A stretch of DNA of 64,000 nt from Iphione sp. A-MEVVRFRX5 (lineage: Eukaryota): positions 59,210,001 through 59,274,000 of the forward strand of contig OZ320316.1 in the NCBI GenBank assembly GCA_976226885.1, given 5' to 3'. Every line of letters starts with the position of its first letter. Position 1 is the stretch's first letter. Below are positions 20,636 through 48,496 of the stretch, piece by piece. The notes under the pieces were generated by a model. It saw only the letters and a list, made by a program, of their open reading frames with translations, did not search any database and was not told the DNA's origin. The translations under genes were made by a program, and so were the position numbers.

Positions 20636-23600
20636 TGTGGCGTGTCTACGGGGTGCAGTTGTGGAGTGTGTGGGAGTATGAGTGTGTGAGTGTGTCAGAC
20701 ATACTGGGGAAACTGTGTGGATAACAGTGTGCATGAATGTTCCATAGAGTTATTATATAAGGGGTGTGCTGGAGACAGGGGTTGCTCAGTTGCCTAGGAT
20801 ATTTCTTGGAATAAACACCTGTTGAAACTGGATATTGTGTGATGAGTCTTCATAGTGGGCATATGCTTAACATTGCTGGCAGTGGTGGGATTAGTGGGGT
20901 AGTGAGGAGTACAAAAGGCCCCCAAGGAGGGAAGACCAGTGGTCGCCAAGAGCAGAAGAGGAGTGTGGCCGCTATGGCAGATGCAAAGCTTGGAAGTGCA
21001 GGGAGTGGAGAAGAACCACACTGACCCTCTGTGGGAACCGGGGTAGCTCTGCACACCCCTACCACATGGCACAGCAGTGCATCTCAGCAGTGGCCTGAGG
21101 AGGGCCCTGAGGTGCCGTACCACTGCACAGGCCCTGTGGCAGAACAGAGGGCAAGGTGTCCTGGCATGATCACGGTACCTTGGAATGACATGGAGGACAC
21201 AGATTCTGATTCAGCAGAGGAAGAGGAAGCAACCAGGAGTGAAGAGGAGCCAGTGGCAGAACCCCAACGGGATGTTACAGTAACTGAGCCAGCACTCCTC
21301 CAAGGCCTGGCCCAAGCCATTATGCCAGGAGTATGAGAGGCAACTAAACAGAGAGGAGTGAAGTAATGTGCAGCAGAGCCTGAGTTGTATGATGACACGA
21401 CCCTGCTCATGGCTACATACATTTCAAGTGGGCATCGATGGCCAATACATGGGATGAGCATCAAAAAGTATTACAGATGAGAATCCACTTTCGTAAATCA
21501 GTGCTGGCAATCCTAAGCACGGTCACTGGGGGAGAAGATGATCCCCAAGCCTACTCTGAGTTAATCCAGCTGTTGAAGAGAAGATTCATACCTAAGAATC
21601 AAGCCGGGCTGTTCGAACAGCAACTGAAAAGTAAAAGGCAGGCAAAGGACGAGAACCTCAACCACTGGCAGAGGAAATCAAACGCCTGGTGCGCCAAGCC
21701 TATCCTGAGGTAGAAGGGTTGTGGCTGGACTGGATGTGTCAAGAATATTTTACGGGGGCCTTATGGGACAAACCTGTACCAAAACAGGTCACACTTTCCA
21801 AGACCTTCACATTCCATGGGGCCCTGTCCCAGGTCCTACTCATGGACTTGTATTACAGGTCGGAGAGGGGCACATCATGCTCAAGCTGCAACCCAGGAAG
21901 AGGCCTTAGAAGATCTGGTTGCAGCCACCAGTACCAGTCGAGAACCAGATCCTGCACCCTGGGAGAGGATAGAGATGTTGCAGTAGCTTCTAGCACCCAA
22001 GACCAAGGACAAGGAACCTAAGAAGAGCCGGCCTAAGAGTAAGAAGGGGAGGTGCCACTTCTACAATTAGGTGGAACATTTCAAGAGGGAGTGTGACAAA
22101 TTCAAAGCCTACCAGGCAGAAAATGCTAACCGACTCACCCCAAAGAAGTAGAGCGGGTGAAGAAGCACTCTGAGGGGGAGTGGCCAGAACATCTAGCAGC
22201 CCTTCATGTCACCAAAGTACCTAGCCACCAACTCCAGGCAGCGCAGAGCCAAGCGATAAAAGGCTGGATTCTTGCAGGTCATATACAGGGCATGGTGATG
22301 CAGTGGCTTATCAATACAGGTGCATCTGTGACCATCCTCTTATCTCAGGTCTTCCAGAAGCTTTCAGGGGTGGATTTATAACCCATTGGAGGGTGCATAC
22401 TCTGTACTGATGGCAAACCTTTGAAGGTACTGGGACAGGTCTACATCCATATATGGTTTGGCTCTGACTGACTACCCATATGGGCATGAGTCAGAGACAT
22501 TGATGCAGACGGATTACTCAGGCTCAATACCCCTCAGTGCTTGGGACGCTATGGTGCATATTGGCACAGGCCTGGTGGAGGAATCCTTGATGGTTTGCAC
22601 AGCAGGACATGTGACTTTTTTTTTTTTTTTTTTTTATTTCTTTATTTCACCTGATAGTTTTATACAAAATGATGTACGTTTTTCCAGGTTGGTTTCATAG
22701 TCGAAGTTGCTTCAGCGGCAGGGTGCTTGATGGTTATTTACATTGCATTAAGTGGCTTTACAGAACCCTTATAGTTACATTGAGATATGATGATTACAAA
22801 ACCAAGTTCGGTCGTATATTGTCATTAGTACGTCTATGTGGCTGTGGTAGCTTGATTGGGTGATCTCTGGCATATAATAGCTCAGGGTTTGTCAGACATT
22901 CGCCCAGACTCCCCTTTCTTAGTTTGATGGTTTAGTTGTATATGGCCTATGTCAGACATTAGCCCTGACAGGATTGCCATTAGTGCCCAGAGAACCACTG
23001 TATATTGCTAACCTTTCAATGCATAATGACATTCACGTGTTAGACCAGGTAGTTTCAAGGTAATTCAGTAGTGGCTATTACAATGTCGTAATCGTTCCAT
23101 ATTTGTGATCTGATGTCTTTAGTCTTCAGCCGAATGATAGGCGGGACTACACTCGGTATGCAGTCAGATTATTCCTTAACCCTTTGCTGAACTTTAAATA
23201 AGACATGGACTGTCCCGGGCAGGTGCCGGCAGGCCCTAGCTGTCAACATCATAGGGCACACTGGAAATGAAGTATTGATCAAACTAGAAGTACAACTTGA
23301 AACCAGATCAGAACTACAGGGTGTACCAACCCTGGTGCAACCCGGGAAGCAGAGTAGTAAAGTTCTAATGTGGAATTCAGGTGACTAGCCACTCAGAGTG
23401 TATGCAGGGACCCAGGTGGGTAACGCACACACAGTGGGGGAGTGTACCAAGGAAGAGCCTGACTGCTTGTGGCAGCAAGAGGCATGGCTGGGGGAAGAGC
23501 ATGATGAGGCCATCTGAGGTATGATGGCCACTCTGCCCACTGGATTTGATGACACCAACTGGGAGCTGGTATGACAACTTTTAGAGGAGTTCTGTGATGC

Positions 23601-26600
23601 CATCCAAACCCCCTCCAGTCATCCAGGTCAGACAGAGCTGACCACCCACCAGATAGACACTAAGGGATGTGCACCGATACGGCAATGTGTGTGTCACCTT
23701 CCTCGAGATGTCCAACCAGTGGTCCAGCAGGAGATTCAGAAGATGTTGGAATGAGGCATCTTAGAACCCTCCTTGAGCCCCTGGGCCTCTCCAGTTGTGT
23801 TGGTGTGGAAAAAGGATGGAAGGGTACGTTTCTGTGTTGAATCAATGTACTAAGAAGGATGTGTATCCCCTTCCGCACATTGATGACCCTCTTAATGCGC
23901 TCCACGGAATGAAGCTGTTCTCCACTCTGGAACTGGCCAGCAGTTACGGGCAAGTGGAAGTCCTCCACGATGACTGAGAAAAAACAGCTGTACATAAGTA
24001 CATCTGAAGGACTCTTTCAATTTTGTGTGATGCCATTTGGCTTGTGTAAAGCACCATCCATGTTTTAAAGATTAATGGAAGCTATCCTGCAGGAAGTCCT
24101 TGCAGATAAGTGTCTTTTCTCCTTGGATGATGTGATCATCCTAGGGAAGTCCATACCAGATGCCTGTGCTAACCTGGCATTGGTGCTCCAATGACTACGT
24201 GACACTGGCCTCAAAATGAAGCCCTCTAAATGTCCATTGTGCCAAGAGACAGTGGAATACTTGGGGCATGTAGTCTCTGCCACCGGCATAGCTCCGGACC
24301 CCGGAAACATTCAAGTGATAAGGAAGTGGCCAAGCCCAGGGTGTGAGACTGAAGTGAGGAGCTTTGTGGGCTTCACATCCTACTACAGAAGTTTCATGAG
24401 AGGGTTTGCCGACATCACCTCCCCACTGGTGACATTGACTGAGAAGGGAGCAGAATTGATCTGGACCCAGGAATGTGATCAGATGTTCAAGGAGTTGAAG
24501 AACAAGTGAACAACAGCCCTGGTATTGGCCTTCCCAGGGGACAAGGGGGACTGTATCTAGACACAGATGCCTCTCTGGTAGGGGTGGGCGTGGTGTAGAG
24601 CCAGGAGCAAGGTCAGCAAGAAAGAGTGATTACCTATGCAAGTCATAGGCTATCTAAGGCAGAACGTAACTATTGTGTAACACAAAGGGAGCTCCTGGGT
24701 GTAGTTTGGGGACTCCACCAATTCAGGCACTACTTGGGAACCCAGGAAGGCATCATCTGGACAGATCACAACTAAATGAAGTGGCTGTTCCAATTGAAAG
24801 AGCCCGAGGGCCAACTCGCCAGATGGTTGGAAGAAATCTTCTGCTATAACTTAAAAATTGTCCACAGACCAGGGAGGATTTATGGCAATGTCAACACTCT
24901 GTCTCAGGTGGAGTGTCAGCAATGCTACTGGGCAGAGCCAGCCGGAGAGGATTTTGACCAAGCCTGTTGGGTAGAGCTACCCAGTGCGGAGGCCCAATGG
25001 GGTGTAGAGGCAGCCCTGAAAAAAGAGAATGTGCCTTCCCAGCTGGTCTCGTGGATAAAAGGGGACTGCAGAGGAATGTCACCAGAGCCAACCAAGGGAC
25101 ATATATGGGAGGAATGAAAACTGCTATCAGAGATAAGCAGGCTGGAGCTGGACCACAGGAAGCTCATCCCTTGTGGGAGTTGGAGGACAGTCAACAGCTG
25201 AGGCAGTGCTATATACCTGCAAGTCTACATAGGCAAGTATGGCAGTGGGTGCATGCCAGTCCCATAGAGGGTCATCTGGGCACTGAGAAGACACTGGGTG
25301 CCTTGGGACTCTGGTACTTCTGGCCAGGCTAGCGACAAGATATCACCTGCTGGGGACAGGGATGTAGAGAGTGTCAGCAGAGGAAGCCATCAGGATCAAG
25401 TTGTTGTTCTCCTTTACACCCCTTGCCGCAGATGGAAAGAGGAAATCAGTATGCACTAGTGGTAATGGACCATTTTACCAAAATAATGGGCCCAAGACTT
25501 CCCTCTATGAGAATTCAGTGCAGTGGCCACAGCAGAGATCTTGGTCGCAGAAGTGATTTGCCTGCCCAGGTCCCCTCGAGTGTTGCATTCAGATCAGGGC
25601 CAAAATTTTGAGAGCAGAGTGGTGGCTAAGGTCTTGAAGGTGCTAGGAACCAAGAAGACTCACACCACCCTGTACCACCCCCAAGCTGAAGGGGTAGTCA
25701 AAAGATATGAACAGAACACTGCTGTCTATGCTATCTATGACCAGTGAGAAGGCACAGGAAGAGTGGGACTTCCAATTGCCATTTGTAATGGCCGCTTACT
25801 GGGCTATGCCCCATACCAGTACAGGATTTACACCCAATTGGCTAATGACACAGAGGGAGACCTGGTTGCCGCTTGAGGTCATGTATGGGGGTCCAAGACC
25901 TGTAAAGCAGGATCTCACTGACTATGCACAAGACCTGCAAGACGGGGCACATATGGCATATTGGGAAGTGGCAGCCCAGCTGAAGAAAGTCGTCCACCAC
26001 CAGAGTGATTGGTACAACAACAAGGTCCGAACACAGCAGCTGAAGGAAGGACAGTGGATCTGGCTCTTTCAGCAAATAAAACTGGCAGGGAAATCACACA
26101 AGCTTGGGTGCTTGTGGACAGGGCCATGGAAAGTAGAAAAGTGCCTCACCATAGTAGTATTCCATATTAGGAAGGGGCGAAGAGTGAAGATTGTCCATGG
26201 GGATTTGCTCAAAGTGGCTCATGGAGTTGCCAAAGAGGAGGAGGAAGACCAAGCAAGAGTTATGCAGACAAATCAGAACAGCAGCAGGGAGAACCGAGTC
26301 CTGAGCTTGCAGGCACGCAGGTCAGTGCACCATACTGAGGTGGCAGGGAAGAATGGGAGCAGGTCCGGTCGTGACTGTGGAGGAAGCTGGATCAAGAGTG
26401 TGTGCAGAATTACAGCAGAGAAGGATGGACCGTGTAGACCAGAGTGCACAGTGAATCGGACCACAAGAGAATGCAGGGGTCTGGCATTGCAGAGAAGTTG
26501 CTCATGACAATGCTGCGACTGAGAGGATTGCCAAGGTACCAAATAGCATTTGGGGTGCCCTCTGTGGAGAACTACTGCATACATCGAAACTCAGATGCAC

Positions 26601-30554: not shown

Positions 30555-33500
30555 AAAAAAAAAGGTGCACCAGTTGGAGGCCAGCATGACAACTAAGGCT
30601 ATGCCTCCAGCCCCAGCCCCAGCCCCAGCCGCCAAGATGGTTGCCTCTGTGGAAAGGCTTGAGCTGCTGCTGCTGGCAGACAATATGGGAAAACCCAGAG
30701 GGAGTGCTTCAATTGTGGAGATCTGGGCACTTCAAGCAGGAGTGTTCCAAGCTGCCTTTAGAGGCAACTCCAGGAAATGGGGAGAGGAGAGGAGGATGTG
30801 TCAGTGGACCATTTGCAGAAGACCGGTTGGCTGAACATCTGAGGATGCTGCACGTCACGAAGGAAGAAAGGAAGGTGATGGCCTGGGGCAGATGCAGAAA
30901 GTGCAGGACCACATTGATGTGTAAGGGCATGGGCTGATCTGCCAGAGGGTGCAAAGAGTGCCACCAGCGAAGAGGGCAGCCATACAGTAGAAAGTGGAGA
31001 GGATAATGATGCAAAGAGTACTGGAGCCCTATACCAGTCCCTGGGCCTCCGCAATGGTGATGGTATGGAAGATGGACCAGAGTTGGCAGTTTTGCATATA
31101 CTACTGAGCCCCTAACCAAGCACGCTTCCCTGCTTCCCAAGATTGACATGCTGGAAGGGGCCCAGTATTTCTCAGCATTGGACCTAACAAGCGGGTAGTG
31201 GCGAGTGGCCATGCATCCTAATGACAAGGAGACCATGACCATGACCATGTGTGCACCCATGGAGGGTTGTACTAATTCACCATGATGCCGTTTGGGCTCT
31301 GCAATGTCCCATTGACTTTCAAACAACTGATGGAGGCCATGCTGCGGGGCTTGATTGGTACCAATTGCCTGGTATATCATGGGCAGATGGTAGAGGAGAT
31401 GGTGGAGTAGCTTCGGGAGGTATTCTGCTAGCTTCATCAATCGGGACCCAAGATCAAGCTGTCCAGATGCTGGAGTGGCATACTTAGGGCACCTGGTATC
31501 ACCTTGTCCTGACCATCATGGAGTGACCAGCAGCACATTGTTTTACTGAACTGTGGAGCTTTATCAGGTTGTCCTCCTACCATTGGGGTTTCATGCAAGG
31601 CTTCACTCCGGTAGCTGCACCCCTACATGCCCTGTTAGATAAAGGCTTAAGTTTCATGTTGACCAAGGACTGCAGGCTGTATTTGACACACTGAAGCAAT
31701 GACTAAGTATGGCCTCAGTGTTGGTGTACCCCAAGGTGGCAGGCCTCCTCACCCTGCACATAGACGCATCAGTGATGGGGGTGGGAGTGGTATTGACTCC
31801 GGAGCAAGAACAGAAACAGGTGCTGGCCTACACCAGCCATAGTCTTGCTCACCCTGAATGGAAATACTGGGTTACTCTGATGGTTAAGTAACTTCAGGGA
31901 ACCAGGGGGCCAGTTAGCCCATTGGCTAGAGGAGGTTCCCTGCTATCACATGGAGGTGCTGGGGAAGAAACCTGGGAACGCTGGTGGACTGTCCAGAAAG
32001 AAGTGCCCCAAGTGCAGCAGGGACCCAGAGAAGGACAGAGATGCATTTGGTCAGGTGGCCACCACGAGAGTGGTGTTCCTGTCGTGAGGGAAGCTGAAGA
32101 GGGTGCAAAAGGCAGACCCCTTGTCCAGAGAGCTCATCTAATACCTTGAAAGTGACGGAAATCTCCCAAGTTGTCAGCCAAAGACAACTGGTTGACACGG
32201 AGACTGAAGAGAGAGTGGAGGTGGTTATGCCTGGTGGAAGGGCTCCTGTGTTGTCAGTGGGAACAGGAATATGGAGTGTTCAGGAAACAGACCCATTTGC
32301 CAGAGTCAGGAAGTTGACAGATCTGGGAGGAGACACATGCTGGGTTCCTTGGGGGCCACCTGGGACTAAAGAATACTGGAGGGGCCATTCAGCTCAAGTT
32401 CTTTTGGTCTGGCATGAGCTGCGACATCATCACGTGGAACCAAGTGTGCTTCCCCTGTCAGCAGAAGCAGGATCCTGGCTGCAGGCATCAGGCTCCACCC
32501 AGTGCCAGGTAGCTGTGAGACCATGGGAGGTCATTGCAGTGGACATTTGTGAACCATTTCCAACTGCTGTGTGCATGAACATCCGGAGGTAGTTTGCCGC
32601 TTCAGTCTCCAGAGTCTTCTGCTTCGGACCCCCACACAAGCACTGCACTCCAACTAAGGCAAGAACTTTGAGGTATCTGTATTCCGAGAGCTACTACAGT
32701 TGTTAGGCATCCAGAAGACCCAGACCAGCCCATACTATCCACAGAGCGATGGGGTAGTTGAGCAATTCAATCGCACACTGACTGGCATGCTGGCCAAGAT
32801 CATTAAAGAGGATCAGAGTGGCTGGAATGAACAGCTTCCCTAAGTGTACCTGAGAATAGTTGAGTCACATGCTGCCATATAATGTCAACTGTACAAGCTT
32901 GTGGAGAGGTGCAAGGACTGGTACGATCAGAAGGTATGGATACAGGAGTACATGAAGGGGCATCAAGTATGGTTGTTCCTTTTGGTAAAGAAGAAAGGTG
33001 CTCACCAAAGCTGCAATGCTGCTGGCAGGGACCTCCAATGGAATCGGGCAGGCCTGGGTAGAGCCTACCAGAGCCAACAGACTTTGTCTGAATCCGGACG
33101 GAACATGAACAGGGTGGAGCTAATGGCACGAGGAAGGCACACCTGATCAAGCCCCCTTTGGACAGAGGAAAAGCATGTTTCCTCCTGTCCCTCATAGACC
33201 TGGAGTGACAGGACACAGAGGGTCATGCCACCACATTCAGCTGGATTGGTTCAGACTGGCAAGGCAGTAAGCAGCTTGACTTGGTGCAGCAACTCACTGA
33301 AGGGGTCTGGGGTCGGTCTGTCCCCCACGAGAACAGGATACAAGCACAAGGCCTGTCACAGTCAAGACCCTTGCAAGATACATTAAAACAGTGGAGAGGG
33401 GTCCAGCAGAGGTTGGAAGGACAGCACATTAAGAAGGAAGTCAGGTGTATGACGAGGGGGCTGCTGCAGAGAACAGCTCAGAAGAGGGCCTCACCACAAC

Positions 33501-36313
33501 TGCAACTGATGGTGCCTGATCAGATGCTGAAGGCTATGCCAGGGCAGAACCACCAGATGGAGCTCAGGGGCTCCATCCATATGCCAGGCAGAGGCTTTAC
33601 CAAACTCTGCCTGCCGAGGACAAATCAGAACCCTGTATTCATAAACCAACCAATGGCTGGGGCCAGGCCGTGTGCTATTTAAACTGTCTGAAGTGGAGCT
33701 CACCAAACTCAGTTTTCACCAGCTAATGGAGTGCACCATGTTAATTCCTCTTTGAGAGACCGAATGGAGTTGCAATGGAGCCTGGGCAGAACTTGACTGA
33801 GCACCAAGTTAGGTAGATAGAGCAGAGCCACCACCCAGCCCACAGAGAACTCTACACAGCCCAGAACTCAGAAGATCCAGCCCCACCATGCAAGACATGG
33901 GCTACAACTGCCAATGCTGTGGTTATGTGATGGACAAGCGGTCAGACATCGTGAGGCACCAGAACTGCCACCGCAAGGAAGGGTTTGCCCAGTGCTTCAT
34001 CATCCCTCACTCTGGTGGAGCGTCTTTTAGATGGCGGGATGATTTCCACTATCATTTGGAGAGATACCACAAGGCTGCACAACTGCACCTCTTCTCCCTG
34101 GAACAAGATGCCACGCTGGTGTTCCTGGACTACAAGTCTTGGGAGGAGGGGCCTGTGCCAGCCATATGTGTAAAAAAGAAGGATATGAGAAGCTGAAGGT
34201 GTTGGCCACCATCTGAGGGGAGCCTGCTCCATCCCGCCCCTGCTTTCCACTAGTCCCTCCTGTGGGAGCCAGTGCCACTACCCCTGATAATAGGAGTGAA
34301 GACAGTGAGGACAAGGAGGATGGAAGCAGCATCCCACCAGAGGAGAGCCTGGGCCCTCGGCTCCAGCCCAGCAAAGGACAGCCAAGCCTCATCGACATCA
34401 AAAGGGACACCAGCCTCTCCCCAGCTGGATGGGACATCCCCTTGTTGGGGATGGACACCTCACCCATTCTCCAGGACTCCAGGACGCAGCTCAGGTCAGC
34501 GAGGCCCACTCCTCAGCGAGAGCTTCAACATCCAAGTCTACTCCCAGGGTAGGATGGACCTGCCCACGGCAAGTGGGACTGGCACCAGGACAGCCTGCCC
34601 CCCAACTGCCCCCACTTGGTTCGGCCTCCTTACCTGGAGCTGCCAGGATCTGGCTGAAGAAGAGGGCAAGGGGAAAACAGACTCAGGACCCCAGCCCATT
34701 TGAGTGGATCAGATACCACCACGTCCAAACCAGGGGTGGGATCTGCACCCCTGTCACAAGAAGGCTTATCGGCAAATGGTGTCCCCCATTACCTCGGTGG
34801 GGTCCCCAGCCAAAAAGACAACATCGGTGGCCACAATGTCACCCCTTGCCTGGGCCAAGGTCACCTCGGGATTTGGGCCCCGGTCCATCCTCGCCACCTC
34901 AGAAGCACCAAGCTGGGAGGCCCAACTTATCAATGAGCACCTGGGCAAGGGGTGGTAGGACATGGAGGCAGAGGAACAGCAGGAGGCTCCAGTGAAGAGG
35001 AGGAGGGTGTCTGTGACCAGGGTCAGGAAAGCCCCCCTAGCTGACTACCTCCAGAGCCAAGGAAACACTACTATTGGCTATGAAAAATATTTGGTGCTTG
35101 AGCACCATTCTGGTGCTCAAAACGTTTAGTGGAAGGAGCCTTCTTCCAGTGCCGTTGCTACTCTGGTGGTCCAACTGATCTAAGCAGTGGACTCGAGCCA
35201 AGTCTTCAGCTCCAGCTTTAACAGAGCAGCCAAGGGCAAAGACAAATCTATCTGCTTTGCCCAGGTCAACCACACCACCAACAGAACTGCCACCCAAGCT
35301 GCTACCCACACTACCAACTGAGCTGATGCTAGAGCCACTGACTCAGCTGCCAAGAGAGCTGGGGAACATGTTAATGGAGAGTGAGCCGTTGGTCCCACCT
35401 GCAGAGGCACTGGTCAAGGGAGGAGAAATGACAGGGGGACCCTTAGCTCTAGGGGTGCCCCCAAAAGCTGACCCCCAGATGACCCCAGGATGACTCAATG
35501 AGACAGGGCCAGCCAGTGGGGCCTTGAGCTCAACCGCTGGGCAGCAGGAGGCTGTCCCCTCTGGCTTCCCGGGGATGATGACAGGGCTCCCCCCGAGTTG
35601 TGGGATGAGCCTTCACAGGATTGTCCCCTGGCTGAGCCAGGACATCAAGCTGAGACCACAGACCATGATGAAGGATCCTACTCCGAGCAGCTGTTGGGGA
35701 GGGCGGAGGTCCATACCGGGCCTCCCCTGATGACATCAACACTGGCCCTGCTCGAATTGGTGGGAACAGACATTATTGAGATACTAGCCTGAAAGACACT
35801 TGTGAGGAATGACCAGACTGGGTCCTCCAGGGAACGTTTACCAACTATGGCCCCTGTAAGGCAGCAGCTGGCCATAAGTAGAGCCATGATGGCACCGGCT
35901 GTCTAGTGGTGGGCCAGTACCTGACTTATTACATCACTCACCACATCTCCAATCGGTTGGAGGATCATTTCTGCCTCTGGACATATCCGTATGAGGCCCA
36001 AGCGTCACTTTACAACAGTGACAGTCACACAGATGATCAGGCTCAGCTTCCGAACTGATGTGGTGCATGATGTTCAATTGTTGGAGAAATGGCTCTGTCA
36101 GGGAACTGGGTGGAGCCTGTACTGGTTCCAACCTGAGCTCAGGTGAGCTACCCAGCTTTGGGCTAGGGGGTAAAGACAGGTATAAAGCCAACGCGATGGA
36201 GTTGATTGTCATTGTTACTTTTATTATTCAGCAATAAACATCTCAAACTAACTTAGAGCTTGGCTCTTTGATCGAAGCATACAATATGAATATGCTTTGA
36301 CCCTATCCTGACC
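30555..36313 (+). mobile_element. Degenerate Gypsy element (element B): gag tail, pol remnants, extra zinc-finger ORF, probable 3' LTR
   Basis: GHFKQEC knuckle; RT, RNase H and integrase remnants at ~30950-33150; LTR-like 36096-36313 (TGTCAGG...CCTGAC, TATAAA 36181, AATAAA 36233). Confidence 0.78.
33888..36058 (+). pseudogene. Accessory ORF of element B: two C2H2-like fingers, low-complexity linker, C-terminal domain
   Basis: CACC-ATG at 33888; CQCCG...DIVRHQNCH and QC...FRWRDDFHYHLERYH; P/S/E-rich fragments; WVLQGTFT...AGH...YLTYYITHH...FCLWTYPY ending at TGA 36058. Confidence 0.62.
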
Positions 36314-36556
36314 GCCAGTGTTAAATCGATCACCAGTGATAGATCTTTTAAAGGACTTATACCATTTATTAATATTTCTGTTCAATTTTATGTTTTTGAT
36401 CTAATAAAAGGAATATATAGTCTGCTAACCAGATCTAACTTAAATTCTGGAATATCCATATGGTTACCATGAAAAAGCTGTCGTGTGACCTGTAAGAAAC
36501 TCAAAAGTTAGCATGTTTGCTTATATTTATAGTGTAATAAATGTATTGTGTAATAT

Positions 36557-36896: not shown

Positions 36897-37584
36897 AATT
36901 AAGTATCAAAACGTTGGAGATCACTGCCTGAACACTTTTTTAATGGAACATTTTCTTCTAGGAGCACTAGTTTTTAATGGCTAACTTCCAGTTATGTAAA
37001 TAAAGAAAAATTAAATGTAAATTTTCTACCTTATATCTCACTTTCAATCATGTCTTGTTGCCATGACAACCAATTAATGAAGTAAAAATATTTTCAAAAT
37101 AACATGCAATTCAATAGCTTACTTTTGATATCCAACATTACAGAATATCTCGAGTATTAAACCGAACACCTTAAGATGATGTATGAAACAACAATTACCA
37201 ATGCCCACAACTTCAATTTTCCTGATCACGCATAACATAAAAAAAACATTAAATTTTATACAACATAGCAGTTTGGTTAGGTTGGAAAAAACCATCATAT
37301 AAAATTGTATATACATTAACTAATAATGTTCCAGTTATGTTAAAATTAAACATTTATAGAACATTGTACTTTGGTTAGGTTAGGAAAACCTTCACACAAC
37401 GTTGTATAAAATGTTTTATAATAACATAGATAATGTTAGAATCAAACATTCCTAGAACAGTGTGACTTGGTTAGGTAAAAAAATTGACAAAATTCAAACA
37501 AATTAAATTGTAACATTCAGGTCATATCCATACGGCATGTTCTTGAAAGGTAGTTTGGTTAGTAATGTGTCTAGAATATCATAG

Positions 37585-37961
37585 TGTGGCGGATGCACAT
37601 TGTTGGATCCATGATATCCAACACCATGGTCCAACCAGATGATCTAATGATTGCTTATGCAACAAATGTGTATCTGATATCATATGTCAGATTCTGGAGG
37701 TATTGTAAAATAGCTGTGTATTGCATAATGACTGTCTGATGTGACATCTAAGTATTCTGAAATCATGGTATTGTGCGAGCCACTAGGGCTCTGTATGTAT
37801 ATAAAGGGCAAAACTTTCTGTATAAACAGACATTCTCTCTTTGCGCCTTGAGAAGTCCTGCAGTGGAGTGAACCAGATTTCGTTGTGTTGGAGTTACTCT
37901 GTCCTTGATCTCTGCCCTTTTGGCCTGTTGGCTAGAGCTCACTGAACACTCACAGATTACA
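37585..37961 (+). mobile_element. Solo LTR (377 bp) with 4-bp TSD ATAG
   Basis: TGTGG...TTACA; ATAG at 37581-37584 and 37962-37965; TATATAAA inside. Confidence 0.72.
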
Positions 37962-38732
37962 ATAGTTTAGTTCTATTAGACAATATATACGGATCCTTTA
38001 ACATGATGTAATAAGAAGTCAAAAAAGTACAGTGGGTTATATGTTGGACTTTGAATTAGAAAAAGTGGGTGCAAAGGTAGAACTTTTCCAAAAACATTTT
38101 GTGTAGGGTTCAGGAAGGGTTTCCTTATGTTTCACAGCAAGGTTCTATAAAGTTTAAAAGAGGTTCACCTTATAACATTTTATCAACGCTATTTCACAAT
38201 GTTCACCAAACCAAATGTAGTGTCGGCCACTCCGTAAATAAGACATGACCAGGAAGTACAAACCAAGGATCTTTATTACTGAGACAATTGAAGACAGAAG
38301 TTCACAGTATGGCTCCCTGCCCTGAACTGAACTGAGAGGGCTCCAGCTCCTGCTTTTATAGGCTGGAGCCCCCAGCGGTGCATTGTGCAACATTGCACGA
38401 TGCGTCCAACGCAGGTGCACGAAGCACAAGGCACAAAGCACGAGGCGACACTGCAACACTGCACTCTGCGCTGAAAGCATCAATGCACAGTGCACAGTGC
38501 CACCTCGCACAATGCAACCTTGCACCGTGCAACGTTGCCACATAACACCGCTACACTGCTCCCTCCCAAGAATCAACTTTGTCCCCAAAGTTCAAACACT
38601 GCAACACAGTCCAACACGTAACGCGCAACGAAAAAGTCCAGGCACGCCAGGGTCGTCAGCTATCTCCGCGCACCCAAGTCCAAAGCAATTCCATCGCGTT
38701 CCAGTCCGGTCCGGTCTGCATCCCACCATTCC

Positions 38733-41321
38733 TTATCGTAGCCGCACCACGAATGTTTCCTTCATCTCGGCCACTACCTCCTCCCCTTCCTGGCAGTCAG
38801 CCCAGGAGGTAAACCGGCGGAACGCCCACCCTCGGGTCAGGTTCCCGGGCCGGCGGGCGTGCCAGCTCATCAGGTCACACGGGGGAGCCTCCCCTGATGG
38901 CCAGAAGCGGATGGACTGCACCAGGTGTACCTTAACCTCATGGTGGCCGGCCAGCTGTACTTCTGCAGTGCTGGAGGTGCCCACAATGTGCCACCCCACT
39001 GGCGGGGCGGACTGTCGGGACACGTGCAGAGTGGTCACCCAATGATACACGGCGTCAGGTATTCCCTCGTCCTCGGAGGCGGGGGGGGAGACATCTTCAT
39101 AGGTCCACCGGTAGGCGTAACGTGGCCCACCGGGGCGTCGTGGAGGGGTGCCTCGGGGGCTGCCCGTCGCGGCCAAGCCTCTACCTCAGGGCGCCGCGGG
39201 GTTAACTCGGGCCACTGGGGAGAGCGCGCCCTGCTCCTGTCGACGGCCCAGTGGCTGAGGGGGACGGCCCGCTAGGCCAGCCCCGCCGGGTGCTGGTACT
39301 GGTCGTTCGGGCTCCGGGGGCACCGGTAGGGGCCCCACAGCGTCCGGCTGGTCCTCTGGTGGCGGTGGTGGTGGTGGTGGTGGTGGGGACACCCGGGCCC
39401 CATCTGTTGGGGGGGTCACTCCCACGAGGCTGAGAGTGGCGACTCCCGAGACCGTCGGTTCACCGCGGCCCTCTTCCGAAGAGTCTGTCGCCTCCCCCGG
39501 CCCGCGGGGGGCCCCCTCCTGTGGGCGGTCGTGCGGTGGGTCATCTGGCCGCTCCTCTGGCTCACGACCGGCGTGGGTGGTCTGAGCGCCCCCGGCTTCG
39601 TCAGTCGGCCCTGCTGGAGGCCGATGTGGGCCGAGGTCCTCGTCTGTTGGCGGCGGTCGGGGCCCCGTGTCCTCCTCCTCGCCCAGCGGGGCGGGTGCCG
39701 CCCCTGACCCTGAGGACTCACCCAGTCCTCCTGCTTCGTCCTCGGGCGGCCCTTCTGACCACTCCTCGGTGTTCTCCTGAGTGGAGATGTCCTCCAGCGG
39801 GGGAACATCCGAGCCCCGACGCGCCACCGTAGAATCGGCGGTCAGGGCCGCCAACTCCTCCTCCTCCACTGTGGCGGTACGTGCCGCCACCCCGGGCCTT
39901 GCTCCGGTGTCGGAGAGCCCTGAGCTCTCCTCCTCTAACCACACCACCTCCCCTAGGGTGGCGGCCATGGCCCGCTGCAGAGTGTCGGGTTCTCCAGCCT
40001 GGGGCGTAGGGTGAGCCTTCTTCTGCCCCAGCGGGGGGGAGGCCCCCGGCGAGTCCTCAAGGACCACCACAGGCCCACTTTCCGTCGCCCTCTCCCAGCC
40101 AGGGCCCAGCCTGCGATCCAGCTGCGTCTCCTCCTCCTCCGCCGTCCGGCTCACCTTCGCCGGGGTATGGCTGCGCCCCGCGGGCCCTCGGCGACCGGGT
40201 GTCCGGGCGCGGGCGGGGCTGGTCCACCAGCCCTTCCTCTGAGGAGGAAGTCGGCATCCGGCCCAACCCCCGGCGCCGTGGGTGGCGGAAGGATGCGCGC
40301 CCTCGCAGGGACACGCCTCCGGGCACAAGGGGTGACGACTCAGCGGCGTCCTCTTAGTCTGACCAGGCCGGCCGCTCTGGTGATGGTTCCCGTGGAGCTG
40401 GCGGCGGCGCTGGGGGTGTTCCGGCCCGCCCCCCCTGGAAAAGCTGCCGGCGGTGGGGCTCCGCCGGGGTTCCCTCCAGGTTGATGCCAGCAGGGGTGGG
40501 CACCAACGGCGCGGTGCGGGCACACGAGGAGCTCGGGGTGCCCTGGGGCTTGGCCCTTTCGTAGGTCCGGGCAGGCGCTCCCCAATGAGGGGGAGAAGAC
40601 GAGGAGCTTCCCGATGGCATGCCGGTGTGAGAAGGGGCTGACGTTCCCGACCCAGGTGTCTCCGACGGGGTGTGGGGGCCCCACCCGAGCGGTGCCTCGT
40701 CCAACAGGGGGGTGCCCGGGTCCTGTGGTGGATTGGCCTCCCGTGGCGTGGGGGGGGGGTCTCCGGGTCCGCAGAGTCTCCTCTCGGGGGAGGGGGCGAA
40801 TCTGCCCGGTCGGCGGGGCCCGCGGGTGCAGGCTCCACGGGGCCAGGGCCCGGGGGCACGGCCACAGGCAGGCCCGCAGGTGGGAGGTCATCCCCCGAGT
40901 CCTGTTCCGTTTCCCCTCGCTCCTGTCTCTGAGCAATCCAGTTCAGTAAGGTCCCGCCGCCGCGTCCTCTCGTCCTGCCGCTTCCGGCGGTCGTACTCTG
41001 CCTGCCGCTCCGGCGGGCAGGGCAGCACCACCCCAAATGTCGGGTTATAACCCGAGAATCGGAGCAGCTCCACGCCTGTGGAGTGTGCCACCCGCTCGGA
41101 GCCATGCACCTTCACCGCGTGCCGCTTCCAATCGGCCCTACGCTTGAAGGCGGTCATCTGGGGAACGGACACAGCCAGCCAAAACCGACGACTTGGTGGG
41201 TGGCTGCGATGTGCTCGTACATTCCCTCCAGCTCGGTGAATTCCTTCCCGCACACCTGGCAGGGGAAGGGGGGGCCGTCGGGGGCGTCCGAGGTGCTAGG
41301 AGTCGGGTCACGTTCAGCCAT
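38733..41321 (-). pseudogene. Element A accessory ORF (~860 codons): two C2H2 fingers, P/E/S-rich linker, C-terminal globular domain
   Basis: GGT-ATG-G at 41321; FPCQVCGKEFTELEGMYEHIAATH; WLCPFP[frameshift]MTAFKRRADWKRHAVKVH; further frameshifts; in-frame TGA 39188-39186; final 147-aa domain ends about 165 nt before the PPT. Confidence 0.78.
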
Positions 41322-41547
41322 ACCGCTCTCGGGGTGCGGGACGGTCCGGTGGCGTTGGTAGCAGGTGGGGACGAGGTTGCGCAGAATGTCCTGGCACTGT
41401 TCGCTAGTGCGTCGATCGCAGGTGCGTCGACCGTGGCTGCGGCGACTGTCAGTGCGGCCAACGTCGAGGCCCCGATGCACGTAGTGTTCACCGTACGTGC
41501 GCCAAACGTTATTGGCGCGTCGAGTGCCTGTGGAAACAAGGCAGACA

Positions 41548-41810
41548 TCAGCACAAGGTGTTTCTGCTACAGCGCGAATGTGGCTCAACCTCTCTACCGG
41601 CGAGCAAACGACTCCCTTACAATTGCCGCCCACGCATTCAACTCCCAGTATTTCGCCGCCAGGACAGGCCGCAGGGTCAGCGCAGAGTGTTCCTGCTACC
41701 GCGCAAAGGTGGCTCGGCCTTTTTACTGGCGAGCAGACAGCTTCCTCACAACGGTTGCTCACACGCTCAACCCTCGGTATTTCGCCGCCAGTACAGGCCG
41801 CGCAGCTGCC
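41548..41810. repeat. 129-bp tandem duplication (two diverged copies)
   Basis: Units start at 41548 and 41677. Confidence 0.8.
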
Positions 41811-42199
41811 ATAGTGGTCCGGCACCCTTATTCTCGTACGATCAACGCAGCTACTTTCCTGGCTGCAGCTTACATTGTACTCTCGACTATCGCGCACCCA
41901 AGTCTCGCGGCTACAAAGCTGGCTTCTGCTAACCTTGCGGCCCCTATTATCGCTCGTAGCTGGTACAAGTGTTGCACATGATAAGATGCCTACCTGGCTT
42001 CGTACCGTCCGAGCGGGATAGTCCATGACGCCCTGGCGTTCAGTGCAGCAGCGTGCCTTGCGCTGAGACATTGCACCCTTGGTCGTCGTGCGATGCTTTT
42101 GTCTCCGTCGGTCGCTCTGACTGCAATGGCACGAGGTCTGCATGTGAGAGACGCGGTCGCGGGTGGTGCTGCCTCATTTCCAGTGGCTTAGATCAGCGA

Positions 42200-42475
42200 G
42201 GTTACGCTGGGCGGCGCCACGTGCTGGCGAAGAGTGCGCCTACAGTGCTTGCCTCGACGCATCGGCGGAATTACGCTGGGTGGCGCCACGGGCTGGTAGA
42301 AGGTGTGCTCGCGCTGCTCGCATCGACGCAGCTTCGTTTCCCGGCCCGTGGTGAGGTGAAGAGCGTGCCTGCAGTGCTCGCCTCGACGCATCGGCGGAGT
42401 TACGCCGGGTGGCGCCACGGGCTGGTAGAGAGCGCACTTGCGCTGCTTGCATTGACGCAGCTTCGTTCCCAGCCA
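42200..42475. repeat. 129-bp tandem repeat at the integrase C-terminus (43-aa repeat NEAASM...)
   Basis: CCTCGACGCATCGGCGGA at 42252 and 42381. Confidence 0.85.
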
Positions 42476-45400
42476 TGACGTTCAGCGCAGTCGCCATCCC
42501 CGCACCCGCGAGGGTGGTCCGGCAGACCTGGCTGGCGCAAGTCACCTGGGGATCCTCTTTGGCTGGCTTGAGTCGGTCCGCATGGACGACCCTCCTCTTG
42601 GGTCCCTTGCCGATTCGATAGGTGACTGCTGAAAGCTTCTCCTCTACTTGCCAGGGCCCTTCCCACCAGTCCTGGAACTTGTGAGGGACTCCCCGGCGGC
42701 GGAGTGGTGAAAACAACCAGACCCTTTGTCCGACCGCATACTCCTGTGGCCTGACTTTCTGGTTGTACCAGTCGCGTCTGTGTTCAGTCACCCGGTTTAA
42801 GTGCTGCGCTACCCTCTGATGAGCCTGCTGGACCTCGTCCTCCACCTGGCTAGCGTACTGGTTCCGCTGCACCACGCTGGGCTCAGGGTATCCGTACCGG
42901 AGTTCCACCGGCAAGTTGACCTCCCGATGGAACATGAGCCGATTGGGCGACATATTGGTCGACCCTTGCGGCGTAGCCCGGTATGCGGCCATCACATAGG
43001 GGAGGGCCAAATCCCAGTCAGCTCTCCGTTCTTCTCCCAGGGTACCCAGCATATTAGCCAGCGTCCGGTTGAAGCGCTCGACCACGCCGTCGCTTTGGGG
43101 GTGATATGGTGTAGTTCGAGATTTTTCTATTCCCAGGATGTGGAGCACCTCTGTGAACAGGTCGGAGTGGAACACTCGGGGGGGGCCAAACCAACATATG
43201 ACCTCTCGCACTATGACTTCAGCGGATGCTTTGGCGGTCGCTTCTGCCAGAGGAAACGCCTCCGTCCACTTGGAGAAGTGGTCCGCCACCACCAGAACGT
43301 ACCGATTTCCCCGCGGGGTCTCCGGCAGAGGCCCCAGTATGTCGGCAGCCACTAACTCCCAAGGCTCGCTCACCGGCCGGGACTGCAGCGGTGCTCGCCG
43401 GGAGCGGGGCGGCGCCTTACGCCGCTGGCACACCTGACATGCGGCCGTCCAGCGCCCCACATCGCGGCGCATCCCTGGCCAGAACCACTTCTGCCGCAAT
43501 AATCCGAGGGTTTTCTCGGCGCCCAGGTGGCCTCCCAGTGTGCCTGCGTGTACATCCTGCCACAGGTCAGCTCGCAGTACGCGGGGGACGTAGGCCTGGT
43601 ACACCGCCTGCCCGCCGTCTGCTTCCCAGCGCCGCATCAGCACCCCGCCCCTCAAGGACAACCAGCCGACTTCCGCCTGCAGCTGGCGCTCCTCCCATGG
43701 CAGCCCAACCTCCAGTCCCGGGGGGTCGTCTCCCGCCGCCAAGGCTTGCCGGATCGCCTCCGTGCCTTCCTCTGCCGCCTGCACCTTACTTAGCTGCTCG
43801 GAGCTTGCCGGCGGGGTCGCCGCCACCGCGGCTACTTCCGCGACTTCGGGGGCCATCTCCCTGGTGCACTGCTTACACTGCTGCCGCAACAGGCCATCCG
43901 CGTTCCCGTGCTTCCGCCCCGGCCGGTGGATGATCTCCAAATCATGGCAGAAGATTTCCTCCAGCAAGCGGGCCAGTTGTCCCTGTGGCTCACGGAAACT
44001 GCAAAGCCACCGCAGCGAGTCGTGGTCGGTCCGGATCTCGACGCTCCGCCCCCCACGTAGCAGCGGAATTTACGCAGGGCGAACACTACGGCCAGCAGTT
44101 CTCGCCATGTCACTCAGTAGTTCCGCTCTGGCTTGGTGAGGGTCCGGCTCGCATAAGCCAAGACCCTCTCTTGCCCGTCCTGGATCTGGGACAGCACTGC
44201 CCCGATGCCGGTGTCGGAGGCGTCTGTGTCCAGCAACAGCCTTCCTTGCGGGCAGGGGTAGCCCAGGATCGGTGCTGAACACAGCTGCTGCTTCAGGTGG
44301 TCGAAGGCCTGCTGGCACTCCCCCGTCCAGGCGAACTCCGCCAGCCGATCTGCCATGGCATGGAGGGGGGCCGCGATCCGGGCGAAGCCCTCCACGAAGC
44401 TCCGGTAATATGAGCATAGGCCGAGGAACCCACGTAACTCCTCCCCACAGCGCGGTGGAGGCCAGGCGGCCACGGCGGCGATCTTCTCTGGGTCCACCCC
44501 GACGCCGCGGGCCGACACCAGATGACCCAGGTACGCCACCTCCTCCTGAAACAGCTGACACTTCGAGGCCTTCACTCGCAGCCCGGCCTGCTGCAGACGG
44601 TCGAAGACTCGCCCCAGGCGGTCGCACATCTCCTCCACTGTGCGGCCTAGCACAATGATATCATCCAGGTACACGAGACAGTCCGTGCCCACCATGCCCC
44701 GCAGCACGGACTCCATGAGGCGCTCGAAGGTCGACGGCGCATTGCACAACCCGAAGGGCATCACCCGGAACTGGTATAGCCCTCCAGGAGTGCACACGGC
44801 CGTCTTCTCCGCATCAGCAGGGTCCATTCTGACCTGCCAGTAGCCACTGGCCAAGTCAATGGCAGAAAAATAGCGGTTCCCCTGCAACGCATCCAGGGTG
44901 TCGTCGATGTGAGGCAGGGGATATGCGTCCTTCTTTGTTACCGCATTCAATCGCCGATAGTCGATACAGAAACGGGTGCTCCCGTCCTTCTTTTTGACCA
45001 GAACCAGGGGAGAAGCCCACGGGCTGGTGGAGTGTTCCAGTACTCCCTTCTCCAACATCGCCTCCACCTCTCGCTCCACCTCCGCTTTTCGGTGGGGAGG
45101 TAGGCGCCGCGCCCTCTGGCGGATGGGGGCGTGCCCTTGCGTATCGATTCGATGCTGGACCACGGGGGTGCACCCCAGGGGGCCGCTCGGGGTCTGGAAG
45201 ACGTCGTAGTGTGCCCCCAGCATCGCCCGGATTTTGGCTCGGTCATCGTGCGACAGTCCTTCTGGTAGTTGGTCCAGCAGCTGTCTTACTGCCTCCCATT
45301 GCTCAGCCTCTACAGTCCCAGCCGGCGCTGCGTAGGCGGTCACCACGTCGCTCACCACATGGCCGGTTCCGAACTGCGTACCGCGGAAGACGCAAGCCGC

Positions 45401-46106
45401 GACCGGCCCCGGGTTCCACAGAGGTATCCACAGTCGGCCCTCTTGTGGACGCACCACGGCCCTGGCCACCCGCAAGCCCGACCTCTCCTCGAACCGGCCG
45501 CTGGCCTCCGCCATGATGTTCTCGCCCGGAAGTCCTTCCCCCTGCCACTCGACTTGCAACCAACCGACCTGCCCTGCTGGGACCGTGGCGTCGGCCACCA
45601 CCGCCAAGGGTGCCGCTGTCTCCCCCGGTATCCGGCCCAGCGCCACCTGCGCCCTCCGGGAGTCCACCACTGCTTCCCAGCGGTCTAACCAGTCAAGTCC
45701 CAATATGGCAGGCACTTCCATATCTACCACTCGGGCCTGCATAGGGACTGCGGCCTCCTGGAAATACACCACCCCGGCCACGGACCCCCGCACCGCGAGT
45801 GGGGCACCATCCACACCGTACACGCGGGCGTCCACTGGTCCCAGGGGTACTCCATGCAGGGACTCGAATACCTTGGCGGAGAGGAGCGACGCCGAAGCGC
45901 CGGTGTCGATCAGCCAGTCTATCACTCGGCCCCCAAACTCCCCCGACAGGAGCAGTCCATTGAATTCGCGCCTTCGGTGGCCCTGCAGGGTGACCGCGGG
46001 CTCTCCCTGGACCACCCAGAGCCTGCAGATGCTCCGGCAGTCCCAGGGAAACGTCGGGTGCGGCCGCCCGCCCTACTGGGCCGGGGCGGGCGGCTGGCTG
46101 TTTGCC
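42240..46106 (-). pseudogene. Element A pol (protease, RT, RNase H, integrase; disrupted)
   Basis: LIDTGAS, PWASPLVLVKKKDG, YLDD, DASDTG; HHCC + DDE integrase, GPW; TGA at 44116-44114; frameshifts near 46015 and 44050. Confidence 0.92.
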
Positions 46107-47805
46107 GTTTCGCTGGATGGCGCCATTGAGGGGGCCACCGCCCCCTCCCCTTCGGCCACCTTACGCGCCGGGCAGTCCTGTTTGAAGTGGCCCTTCTCAT
46201 GACAGTAGAAGCACCCGCCTTCCGCGTTTCCTCCGCGGCGACCTCGTCGAGCGGGCGCGCCGGTCGGTGCTTCCAGCAGGCGGACCAGCAGCTGCTCTAT
46301 CCGGTCACAAGCCTGCGGGGGGGCGGTGGGGGTGGTGCGGGCTGCCGCGGCCATTGCTTCATCTTCCTCTGTGCGCGCTGCGCGTACCCGCGACTGCGTG
46401 GCGGGGGGTTGCGCTCCTTCTCCGCCCGATGAAACGACTCCGCCAGGAGGGCCTCCGAGACCGCCGCCTGGAATGTCTTGGCCTTGGCCTGCACCACCCA
46501 GCGGCGACTTCGCTCGTCCCGCAGGGCGCTGACGAAGGAGTCTTTGCACATGCGGTCAAGCCAGACCCCCTCGGCTTCCGGGTAGGCTTGCCGGGCCAAG
46601 CGCTCGATCTCCTCCCCCAGCTTCTGGGCATCCTCCTCCTTGCCCTGGTGCCGCTGCTTGAGCTCCTGCTCAAAGAAGGTGACGCGGTCCTCCGACTGGA
46701 ACCTCTGTTTTAGCACCTCCTCGATCCGTGCATACGCCCCGGGTGCCGTCACGTCCACATCGGCCGACCTGAGGGCCGACTGGGCTGATTTCCGCAAACA
46801 GACACTGAGTTGGAGAGCCTTCTCAGCGTCATCCCAGCGGTTGGTTTTTGCGACGAGCCCGAAGTGATGTAGGGGCCCTGACCCGTCGAAGGACTCGGGT
46901 TTCACATGGCGCCACCTGGGGCTGCATTGCTGCCTGCAACCCGGACACCAGCCCTCGCACCAAGGTGGCGGCCTCATCTGCCGGGGACCTGCCGGCGGCC
47001 AATCCCGGCGCTCGCGGGGCACACCCAGGGTCCACGTGGGCCAGCTTCCGGGCATCAGCCCGACCTCGGCCAGGGTCGCGGTGGGGGGACCTTGCGGTTC
47101 ACCCTTAGGGCGGGCCGCCCCAGGCCAGACAGCGCGGCCACCTCCCTTGCTCCTCGGGACCGCAAGCGGAGGGCCGGGCGCGGGCGGCGGGCCGCCGATC
47201 CGCCCGAGGGCGTCTGTCCCTGTATCCACTCCTCGGCCATCGGTTGTCTTGGGGGGAGGGGCGCCCGCGCACACAGCAATTGCGTCCGCGCCAGTAGCAT
47301 CTGCGCCGGTAGCATCTGCGCCGGTAGCATCTGTGTCAGTGGCATCTGTGTCAGTAGCATCTGCGTCAGTAGCATCTGCGTCAGTAGCATCTGCGTCAGT
47401 AGCATCTGCGTCAGTAGCATCTGCATCGATAGCATCTGAATCGATAGCATCTGCGTTGATAGCATCTGCGTCGATAGTGACTGCGTCGAACGCTGCGGCA
47501 CCGAGCGTCGTGGCACCCCGCGCTCGTGCGCCCTTTGTTGTTGCAGTGCCCGCGCCAGGGAGCCCGCTTCCTCGCCGAGACGCGCCGGGCCGCATCTGCG
47601 AGGCGCCTGCCGGCACCCTACGTCGCGACGGTCGGGGCGCGGCTGGCGGCGAACGGCAGTCCATCATCAATTCGATCTCACTGTCGGAACTCAGAGCGCC
47701 TTCGGTACCCCAGGACTCTGAGTCGCTATCCCTTCCTGGTGCGGGCGGTGACTGCACTCGTCGACGCCCCCTTCCTGCGGGGGGCCGGCCAGCGGGGGAA
47801 GGCAT
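46073..47805 (-). pseudogene. Element A gag (ATG 47805; frameshift in C-run near 46405)
   Basis: PESFDG..NRW..KALQLSVCLR capsid-like region; CFYCHEKGHFKQDC knuckle; N-terminal (DATDA)n repeat. Confidence 0.88.
47282..47480 (-). repeat. 15-bp coding minisatellite, 12 units (DA[T/I][D/G][A/T])
   Basis: AGCATCTG at exact 15-bp spacing from 47296 to 47461. Confidence 0.92.
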
Positions 47806-48496
47806 CCCACTGCTGCCACCAATGTAGCGTCGGCCACTCCGTAAATAAGACATGACCAGGAAGTACAAACCAAGGATCTTTATTACTGAGACAATTGAAG
47901 ACAGAAGTTCACAGTATGGCTCCCTGCCCTGAACTGAACTGAGAGGGCTCCAGCTCCTGCTTTTATAGGCTGGAGCCCCCAGCGGTGCATGGTGCAACGT
48001 TGCACGATGCGTCCAACGCAGGTGCACGAAGCACAAGGCACAAAGCACGAGGCGACACTGCAACACTGCACTCCACGCTGAAAGCATCAATGCACAGTGC
48101 ACAGTGCCACCTCGCACAATGCAACCTTGCACCATGCAACGTTGCCACATAACACCGCTACACAAACTGCAATGTTTATAAAACATTTATAAAACATAAA
48201 TTGTTACCTGGGAAATATCGTCAGTTGATTTAGAACCCCACCATCTTAAAACAGATAATGGAGCACCATTGAGCATTCATGAGTTTAAAATGAATGGATT
48301 TAAATATCACCACATAAAGCCCTCGTGATTGAAAGTGAACAGGAAAGTAGAAAAATTCCTAACACCTGCCTTCTATGTAACACTGAGGGAGACTCTGATA
48401 AACTAGATTATGATGAACTCACACTAAGTATGACAGCCTCTCCCTAAGCACAATCCATGGGCAGTGCAGGTCAATCTCAGCAGCTGATCCTCATGA

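Follow-up and report, generated by a model that had tools for sequence, protein, structure and literature searches.

A Ty3/Gypsy retrotransposon (hereafter E1) in the genome of Iphione sp. A-MEVVRFRX5 carries, between pol and its 3' long terminal repeat (LTR), a sense open reading frame (ORF) that begins with two C2H2 zinc fingers. E1 lies in a 64,000-nucleotide stretch of contig OZ320316.1 (positions 59,210,001 to 59,274,000, forward strand; "the window", to which coordinates refer unless stated otherwise). The ORF recurs as an accessory gene within a Gypsy sub-lineage and is a trait of that lineage, not of a single element. We put at about 0.5 the probability that it encodes a fast-evolving, self-directed DNA-binding regulator of the element's own transcription.

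A zinc-finger ORF in a complete Gypsy element

E1 is a young, complete element on the minus strand (48162-38216; Table 1). As the original prediction stated, LTRs, target-site duplication (TSD), primer-binding site (PBS), and polypurine tract (PPT) are all present, and together with the domain order and a gag with capsid-like region and CCHC knuckle they identify E1 as a Ty3/Gypsy LTR retrotransposon. The LTRs are 340 bp each, have TG...CA ends, and contain 6 mismatches (1.8%; 98.2% identity). Pfam finds protease, reverse transcriptase (RT), RNase H (RH), integrase (INT), and Integrase_p58_C in Gypsy order. No gag family is found in E1 by Pfam; its gag is matched by the gag queries of two related elements, L002 and L017 (tblastn, E 1e-16 and 1e-12). 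The PBS is presumably of tRNA-Leu type; no tRNA genes are found in the window for comparison, and Rfam has no match at 30000-50000.

The ORF follows pol in sense orientation and spans 863 codons, matching the predicted 2.6 kb and about 860 codons. A stretch of 641 codons (39189-41111) is stop-free in one frame (0/1000 shuffles with any open frame), and codon scores trained on pol become positive in the finger region and again over 40200-38735. The reading frame is uncertain at about 40900-40165; sliding scores and the Viterbi path disagree there and at 39386-39121. The E1 copy is now broken, with frame changes at about 41160-41185, 40920, 40800-40750, and 40165 (the middle two uncertain) and stops at 40356 and 39188. 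The best-supported path contains four frame changes and two stops in 2.6 kb (2.3/kb), compared with 3-4 frame-breaking lesions in the 5.6 kb of gag-pol (0.5-0.7/kb; p 0.03-0.08). A minimal path of three lesions has a density like that of gag-pol (p 0.39-0.69). The earlier claim that the lesion density resembles that of gag and pol therefore holds for the minimal path and fails for the best-supported one.

Of the two classical C2H2 fingers proposed earlier, finger 1 fits the motif (C-x2-C-x12-H-x4-H), with a weak Pfam zf-C2H2 match below the cut-off (E 0.007, 17.3 bits; cut-off 25.2), and finger 2 is split over two frames. The fingers of relatives are also weak against Pfam. Host tandem C2H2 arrays have three or more fingers with a canonical linker; unlike them, the ORFs of this lineage have two fingers with non-canonical linkers of 5-8 residues. 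The proposed long acidic and proline-rich region is seen as a Pro/Gly/Ser-rich and then acidic low-complexity stretch.

The Trp/Val-rich tail, given as 147 aa in the original prediction, measures 150 codons from stop to stop, of which the first ~20 are low-complexity. Its description as globular derives from composition and low-confidence AlphaFold models (predicted local distance difference test scores of 37 and 45), and a fold search with the tail model is uninformative (best Z 3.7, generic beta-sandwiches). No tail homologs are obtained in a word-indexed search (0/160 candidates) or with a two-sequence profile (0/951), and no match is present in Pfam, PHROGs, NCBIfam, or PDB sequences. In the ESM Atlas, matches to the E1 tail stay below 0.9, and the ORF of the related element L011 matches only generic C2H2 clusters. 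Three phmmer matches (E 2e-5 to 3e-4; 1.84 billion representatives) were rejected, all being repeat proteins and one a fizzy-related isoform. The tail-search negatives are weak, since the E1 tail is below BLAST significance even against its closest counterpart, that of the neighboring element E2.

Recurrence of the ORF in related elements

Two older elements in the window, E2 and E3, belong to the same clade as E1 (support 99/89, integrase tree). E2 has a finger ORF, the ATG of which (33888) is located ~0.8 kb past the integrase remnant. The E2 tail is the best non-self match to the E1 tail among 1704 six-frame windows; its score of 62 is reached in 0/20000 local shuffles and in 8/3000 shuffles over all three frames of 34200-36700. 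The two tails have a common Trp pattern, and both end in F-x3-LR-stop. Outside the tail, reversed controls do as well as the low-complexity E1-E2 matches. One match in the Pro-rich middle, with a score of 65, was discarded, as reversed controls reach 61. After E3, no finger or tail match is found.

Further relatives were gathered through an integrase scan of prokaryote-labelled genome contigs, which gave 19 loci (L001-L019), of which 15 were examined; two loci and two short fragments were left out. A two-finger ORF follows pol in three of the 15 (L008, L011, and L012), with finger 2 complete in each. The other 12 comprise three with a different post-pol ORF (L001, L005, and L006), six complete elements without one, and three that end ≤148 bp from pol. 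L008 repeats the whole layout of E1, with an ORF of ~1006 codons containing one frame change and a PBS nearly as in E1. The 19 loci are intact-looking Gypsy elements in bacterial and archaeal genome records, and are most likely contamination of those assemblies by animal hosts.

A protein family comprising P0061, P0188, and P0191 is sister to the E1 group (support 97/93). P0188, an ORF that is intact and 950 aa long, contains two C2H2-like fingers recognized by motif scan alone (longer loops; Pfam E 0.36) and a long disordered region; it has a coiled-coil-like stretch and no transmembrane (TM) or signal-like stretch. A second copy in its family contains an 875-aa piece of the finger ORF. P0191 is a single frame of 2636 aa that runs from protease through integrase and a linker into the same finger ORF, and P0192 is open across the whole linker. 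Linkage to Gypsy pol is thus seen in E2, L008, L011, L012, and the P0061/P0188/P0191 family, in line with the original prediction.

On an integrase tree of 39 rows, the finger label requires 2 changes (3/500 shuffles as low), and a single origin of the finger ORF is not rejected (approximately unbiased test, p-AU 0.098). When 21 pol clusters were checked for the finger part, it was present, among the members listed, in the P0061 cluster only (1/21); this result is a weak indicator, since an ORF apart from pol would fall outside the pol clusters. Neither P0188 nor P0191 was recovered by the finger profile A3, which makes a scan of 305 proteins with it insensitive.

The different post-pol ORFs of L001 (5921-6775), L005 (1164-1886), and L006 (6939-7610; coordinates of the respective loci) are of another type and lie on another branch of the tree. 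They have no Pfam or NCBIfam family above cut-off; a GDS-like motif in L005 may hint at an SGNH hydrolase. No integrase match is found in the phage collection, and the plasmid collection contains one 5.3-kb record carrying such an integrase.

Separate protein or extension of Pol

The original prediction treated the ORF as a separate gene and omitted possible continuity with Pol. It also missed that the E1 finger ATG shares the integrase frame. The finger region could instead be a C-terminal extension of Pol, made by fusion or read-through, that tethers integrase to a DNA motif or to chromatin in the manner of a chromodomain. We regard this as unlikely, though several observations favor it. P0191 stays open in a single frame from protease through the whole finger ORF, and the linker is identical between P0191 and P0192 (0/483 differences), as invariant as pol. 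The ORF is in the pol frame in 4/5 bearers (p 0.045), and in L011 the two are separated solely by pol's own stop. In E1, 284 codons upstream of the ATG are stop-free (0/3000 shuffles), and only two stops lie between integrase and ATG, one of them in a repeat unit whose twin unit has a sense codon at that place. The ATG is 448 codons past the GPW motif, and the equivalent distance in P0191 is 519.

Against an extension of Pol, fusion is impossible for L008 (7 stops in 687 bp) and L012 (other frame, 9 stops). Pol-trained codon scores of the E1 spacer are negative, third-position bias is absent from its repeats (11/8/10 and 2/8/6), and the spacer is not similar to the P0191 linker (528/2000 shuffles). 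Of 139 GP-motif proteins compared, P0191 alone continues into fingers, and a Met directly precedes the fingers in every case.

The signals around the finger ATG point the same way. The first CxxC is positioned 8-25 residues past the start in all five DNA cases (E1, E2, L008, L011, and L012), which supports a separate protein. Relatives carry promoter or splice-acceptor signals ahead of the ATG: CCAAT and TATA 190-240 bp upstream in E2 and L008, and a pyrimidine tract with CAG directly ahead in L011 and L012. The CxxC spacing and these upstream signals together favor a separate protein. The E1 spacer has a CCAAT ~197 bp ahead of the ATG. Some families may make both products, a separate protein and a Pol fusion. 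On the plus strand, the antisense frame across the spacer (41148-41981) likewise has 277 codons without a stop and is in register with the sense frame.

Probable DNA binding, candidate cis motifs, and sequence evolution

Arg at helix positions -1 and +6 is the base-reading pattern of DNA-binding C2H2 fingers. The finger 2 helix has Arg at both positions in E1, L008, L011, and L012; its residue at +3 is Asp, Gln, or Asn. The helix of E2 finger 1 reads K/D/R, and that of P0188 finger 2 reads R,A,D,S. The finger 1 helix is acidic in E1 and L008. In the PDB, a profile of the lineage fingers matches CTCF, Zif268, and further fingers that bind DNA. The ORF product is therefore probably DNA-binding, although the helix residues are suggestive only.

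In L008, three windows before the internal TATA share the most 6/7-mers with the unique 3' (U3) region of the LTR among 109 windows (0 and 2/300 shuffles). In E1, a 103-bp segment shared between the spacer and the 5' repeat region bears at its edge two TCGACGCA motifs. E1 has 7 occurrences of TCGACGCA and the other 54 kb have none; this enrichment was discounted, that DNA being CpG-depleted. The gag N-terminus contains a 15-bp repeat (47288-47472, minus strand; 12 in-frame copies) encoding an Asp/Ala/Thr pentapeptide, and the upstream edge of this array is similar to the segment ahead of the finger ATG.

The CpG observed/expected ratio is 0.15-0.28 in old elements and flanks, compared with 0.73-1.13 in the internal regions of E1 and 0.64 in its LTR. 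CpG erosion in the old DNA relative to the young E1 makes methylation pressure of the host on transposons likely. Within the P0191 family, 11/812 residues of the finger ORF differ, compared with 1/1684 in pol plus linker (p 3e-5). Such fast divergence is as expected for a gene in conflict with its host.

A second alternative is one that we likewise consider unlikely. The product might be a decoy that sequesters host zinc-finger repressors or co-repressors, a self-limiting repressor, or an RNA-binding helper in export or packaging. The acidic finger 1 of E1 and L008, the large disordered region, the coiled-coil-like stretch of P0188, and the fast divergence would all suit such a role. In zebrafish, host C2H2 proteins act as repressors of young LTR elements (PMC10547256). 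On the other side, the base-reading helix of finger 2 is kept across distant families, and positive self-regulation is the simpler fit to the motif sharing between the two promoters of L008.

Comparison with known systems

By inference only, the ORF would work most like foamy-virus Tas or the VANC protein of VANDAL elements. Tas binds DNA at both promoters. It is encoded near the 3' LTR and served by an internal promoter (PMC7828637), to which the CCAAT and TATA of E2 and L008 would correspond; TATA is absent in E1. Unlike the present elements, foamy viruses are Retroviridae with env (PMC7828637); there is no positive sequence link to Tas, and the fingers here are of C2H2 type. VANC is likewise encoded by a transposable element and fast-evolving (PMC5735166), and binding to the element's own repeated motifs is proposed here. 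VANC differs in belonging to a DNA transposon, in its DUF1985/DUF287 domains, and in having demethylation proven experimentally (PMC5735166). No DUF1985 or DUF287 is found in any E1 ORF piece by Pfam. The original prediction's link to VANC thus has no sequence or domain tie, and an anti-silencing role is suggested by analogy only. As candidate VANC-like target repeats, E1 offers its arrays and the shared 103-bp segment; LTR/internal sharing is significant in L008 and not in E1.

Among LTR retrotransposons, the bdelloid Vesta/Juno Gypsy elements have a third ORF encoding GDSL esterases, DEDDy exonucleases, env, or coiled-coil or TM proteins (PMC5408684). It shares with the present ORF its sense orientation, its location between pol and 3' LTR, its family specificity, and its usual form as a separate or spliced unit (PMC5408684). 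The terms "zinc" and "C2H2" are both absent from that paper, and no GDSL or DEDDy domain is found in the E1 ORF by Pfam. The TRP28 ORFs of plant Retand/Tat elements resemble the present case in a long region between pol and 3' LTR, tandem repeats, and a proposed DNA-binding regulator; theirs are antisense, have a TRP28 domain, and are confined to plants, whereas ours is sense, C2H2, and animal (PMC11963269). Pfam has no match other than zinc fingers, TRP28 included, in the E1 ORF pieces. The integrase chromodomain of chromoviruses is the model for an extension of Pol, being a chromatin- or DNA-reading module after integrase (PMC2774666, PMC12440569); in contrast, the module here measures ~900 aa, includes a Met of its own, and forms a separate ORF in most bearers. 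No chromo family is found by Pfam at E 0.1 in pieces spanning 44069-41157.

A C2H2 accessory ORF in Gypsy elements was not found described in the titles and abstract openings listed by full-text searches of open-access literature; prior annotation of the lineage is quite possible.

Other features of the window

The three elements of one Gypsy clade (E3, E2, and E1) lie within 27 kb (21420-48162), which may hint at an insertion preference. A dispersed repeat with 73-75% identity is found just past the E3 integrase (26766-26998) and just outside the E1 5' LTR (48490-48720). An unrelated Gypsy element with ~160-bp LTRs that are 99% identical (11655-20264, plus strand) is interrupted at 14247-17377 by a Penelope-type insert on the minus strand, with 260-bp inverted arms and a 1030-codon ORF of RT plus GIY-YIG. 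A 223-bp direct repeat (50231/50652) beside minus-strand ORFs with a weak RT match (50231-53778) is probably a decayed retroelement. An exon of ~200 codons at 56950-57561 (plus strand) encodes the N-terminal part of a cytochrome P450; its nearest PDB matches are CYP2-family enzymes.

Table 1 Positions of the features of E1, E2, and E3 in the window.
Feature	Position	Strand	Remarks
E1 5' LTR	47823..48162	-	TATAAAA and AATAAA within; TSD TTTG directly outside at 48163-48166
E1 PBS	47804..47821	-	18-mer, one base past 5' LTR; 17/18 bases as in L008
E1 gag	46075..47805	-	disordered N-terminus; capsid-like region ~46905-46432; CCHC knuckle ~46243-46145 in other frame (one frame change)
E1 pol (protease-RT-RH-INT, GPW motif)	42243..46072	-	stop 44116; frame change ~44050; 8-residue in-frame gap ~43160
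129-bp/69-bp repeats, end of pol	42192..42470	-	both stops between integrase and fingers (42242, 42176) within or beside them
Spacer	41322..42173	-	stop-free in integrase/finger frame; negative codon scores; second 129-bp repeat 41548-41801
103-bp segment, candidate cis-element	41412..41514	-	63% identity (E 5e-6) to 47543-47441 in 5' repeat region
Accessory zinc-finger ORF	38733..41321	-	ATG 41321 to stop 38733; sense, after pol; broken
C2H2 finger 1	41196..41261	-	helix positions -1,2,3,6 = E,E,G,E
C2H2 finger 2	41104..41171	-	split over two frames at ~41160, His pair in second; helix positions -1,2,3,6 = R,A,D,R
Low-complexity region, Pro/Gly/Ser-rich followed by acidic	39126..40900	-	no Pfam match
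C-terminal domain	38736..39125	-	~130 aa, Trp/Val-rich; beta-rich predicted at low confidence; homologous to E2 tail
E1 PPT	38556..38567	-	purine run ahead of 3' LTR
E1 3' LTR	38216..38555	-	TSD TTTG (4 bp) at 38212-38215
E2 pol remnant, decayed	30883..32999	+	RT-RH-INT; ~31-42% identity to E1 in long segments
E2 promoter-like signals	33650..33683	+	CCAAT and TATTTAAA, 241 and 215 bp ahead of finger ATG
E2 finger ORF, decayed	33888..36146	+	753 codons; finger 1 at 33909, finger 2 remnant, GC-rich middle, tail 35898-36143
E3 gag-pol, decayed, same clade	21420..26219	+	other repeats within ~0.5 kb after

Discussion

In the explanation that we prefer, the ORF is an accessory gene of an animal Gypsy sub-lineage and would be translated from its own ATG, on a message that comes from an internal promoter in some families and is spliced in others. 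The product would resemble a transcription factor. The two N-terminal fingers would read a short DNA motif, the long acidic and Pro-rich disordered region would serve as effector, and the family-specific C-terminal domain would bind partners or itself. By binding repeated motifs in its own element, in the LTR and the internal promoter, the protein would sustain transcription against host silencing. The architecture, its recurrence and linkage to pol, the helix residues, and the promoter or splice signals of relatives are observed; that the protein is expressed, that it binds DNA, what it targets, and whether it activates or counters silencing are inferred.

Several observations weigh against this explanation. 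P0191 shows that the finger ORF can be continuous with Pol. The original prediction of a DNA-binding regulator is supported by the finger 2 helix (R..D..R), but the acidic finger 1 of E1 (E,E,G,E) does not look like a base-reading finger, and two fingers read only ~6 bp. Sharing of k-mers between LTR and internal region in E1 is matched by 96 and 176/300 shuffles and disappears under dinucleotide control. No TATA is found ahead of the E1 finger ATG, where the splice-acceptor context is weak. L016, a complete element without the ORF, is nested among bearers; some families can therefore do without the gene. The tails of E1/E2, P0188, L008, and L011 are not detectably alike, and common origin beyond the fingers is therefore shown for E1-E2 alone. 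The fast divergence in the P0191 family relies on three proteins being taken as one copy because their contigs are equally long, and could reflect relaxed constraint on disordered sequence.

It is quite improbable that captured host zinc-finger fragments, or frames open by chance in GC-rich DNA, are simply being carried along as neutral passengers. The lack of a database homolog for the tail, the higher lesion number of the E1 ORF relative to gag-pol, and the control-level E1-E2 matches outside the tail would fit neutrality. However, position, orientation, finger number, and N-terminal placement are alike in six element families, the finger label is clustered on the integrase tree with one origin not rejected, intact 950-aa copies exist, and E1 and E2 have a conserved tail. 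A strongly diverged env, or a protein for transfer from cell to cell, which the position between pol and 3' LTR, the splice acceptors of two relatives, and the beta-rich tail might suggest, is very improbable, because zinc fingers at the N-terminus imply that the protein is nuclear or cytosolic, Pfam matches no env family, and the signal peptide and TM anchor of errantivirus-type env are not found: the E1 ORF (hydrophobic 19-mer maximum 1.15 over 7 pieces), P0188 (1.37), L008, and L011 have no TM or signal-like stretch (hydropathy maxima 0.3-1.4), as the original prediction had argued for E1.

A wider proposal, which we offer tentatively and hold to be doubtful, is that an old and broad animal Gypsy lineage encodes its own sequence-specific transcription factor as a counterpart of VANC and Tas. 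This factor would bind motifs that the LTR has in common with an internal promoter, counter silencing by methylation, and co-evolve with its target repeats, and in some families a giant Pol fusion would also couple the DNA-reading module to integration.

Plant DNA transposons and complex retroviruses offer established cases of sequence-specific anti-silencing or transactivator genes, and the extra genes of animal LTR retrotransposons in the surveyed literature are envelopes, enzymes, or membrane proteins. If our preferred explanation is true, a C2H2 gene on the element itself reverses the usual picture of host zinc fingers repressing transposons. It would also offer a direct test of the means by which retrotransposons remain active in methylating animal genomes, with one protein, a short predicted target, and intact natural copies in sister families. 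Two-finger proteins of this kind are common in bivalve gene sets, and some of the two-finger "uncharacterised transcription factors" in invertebrate gene sets would then be transposon genes.

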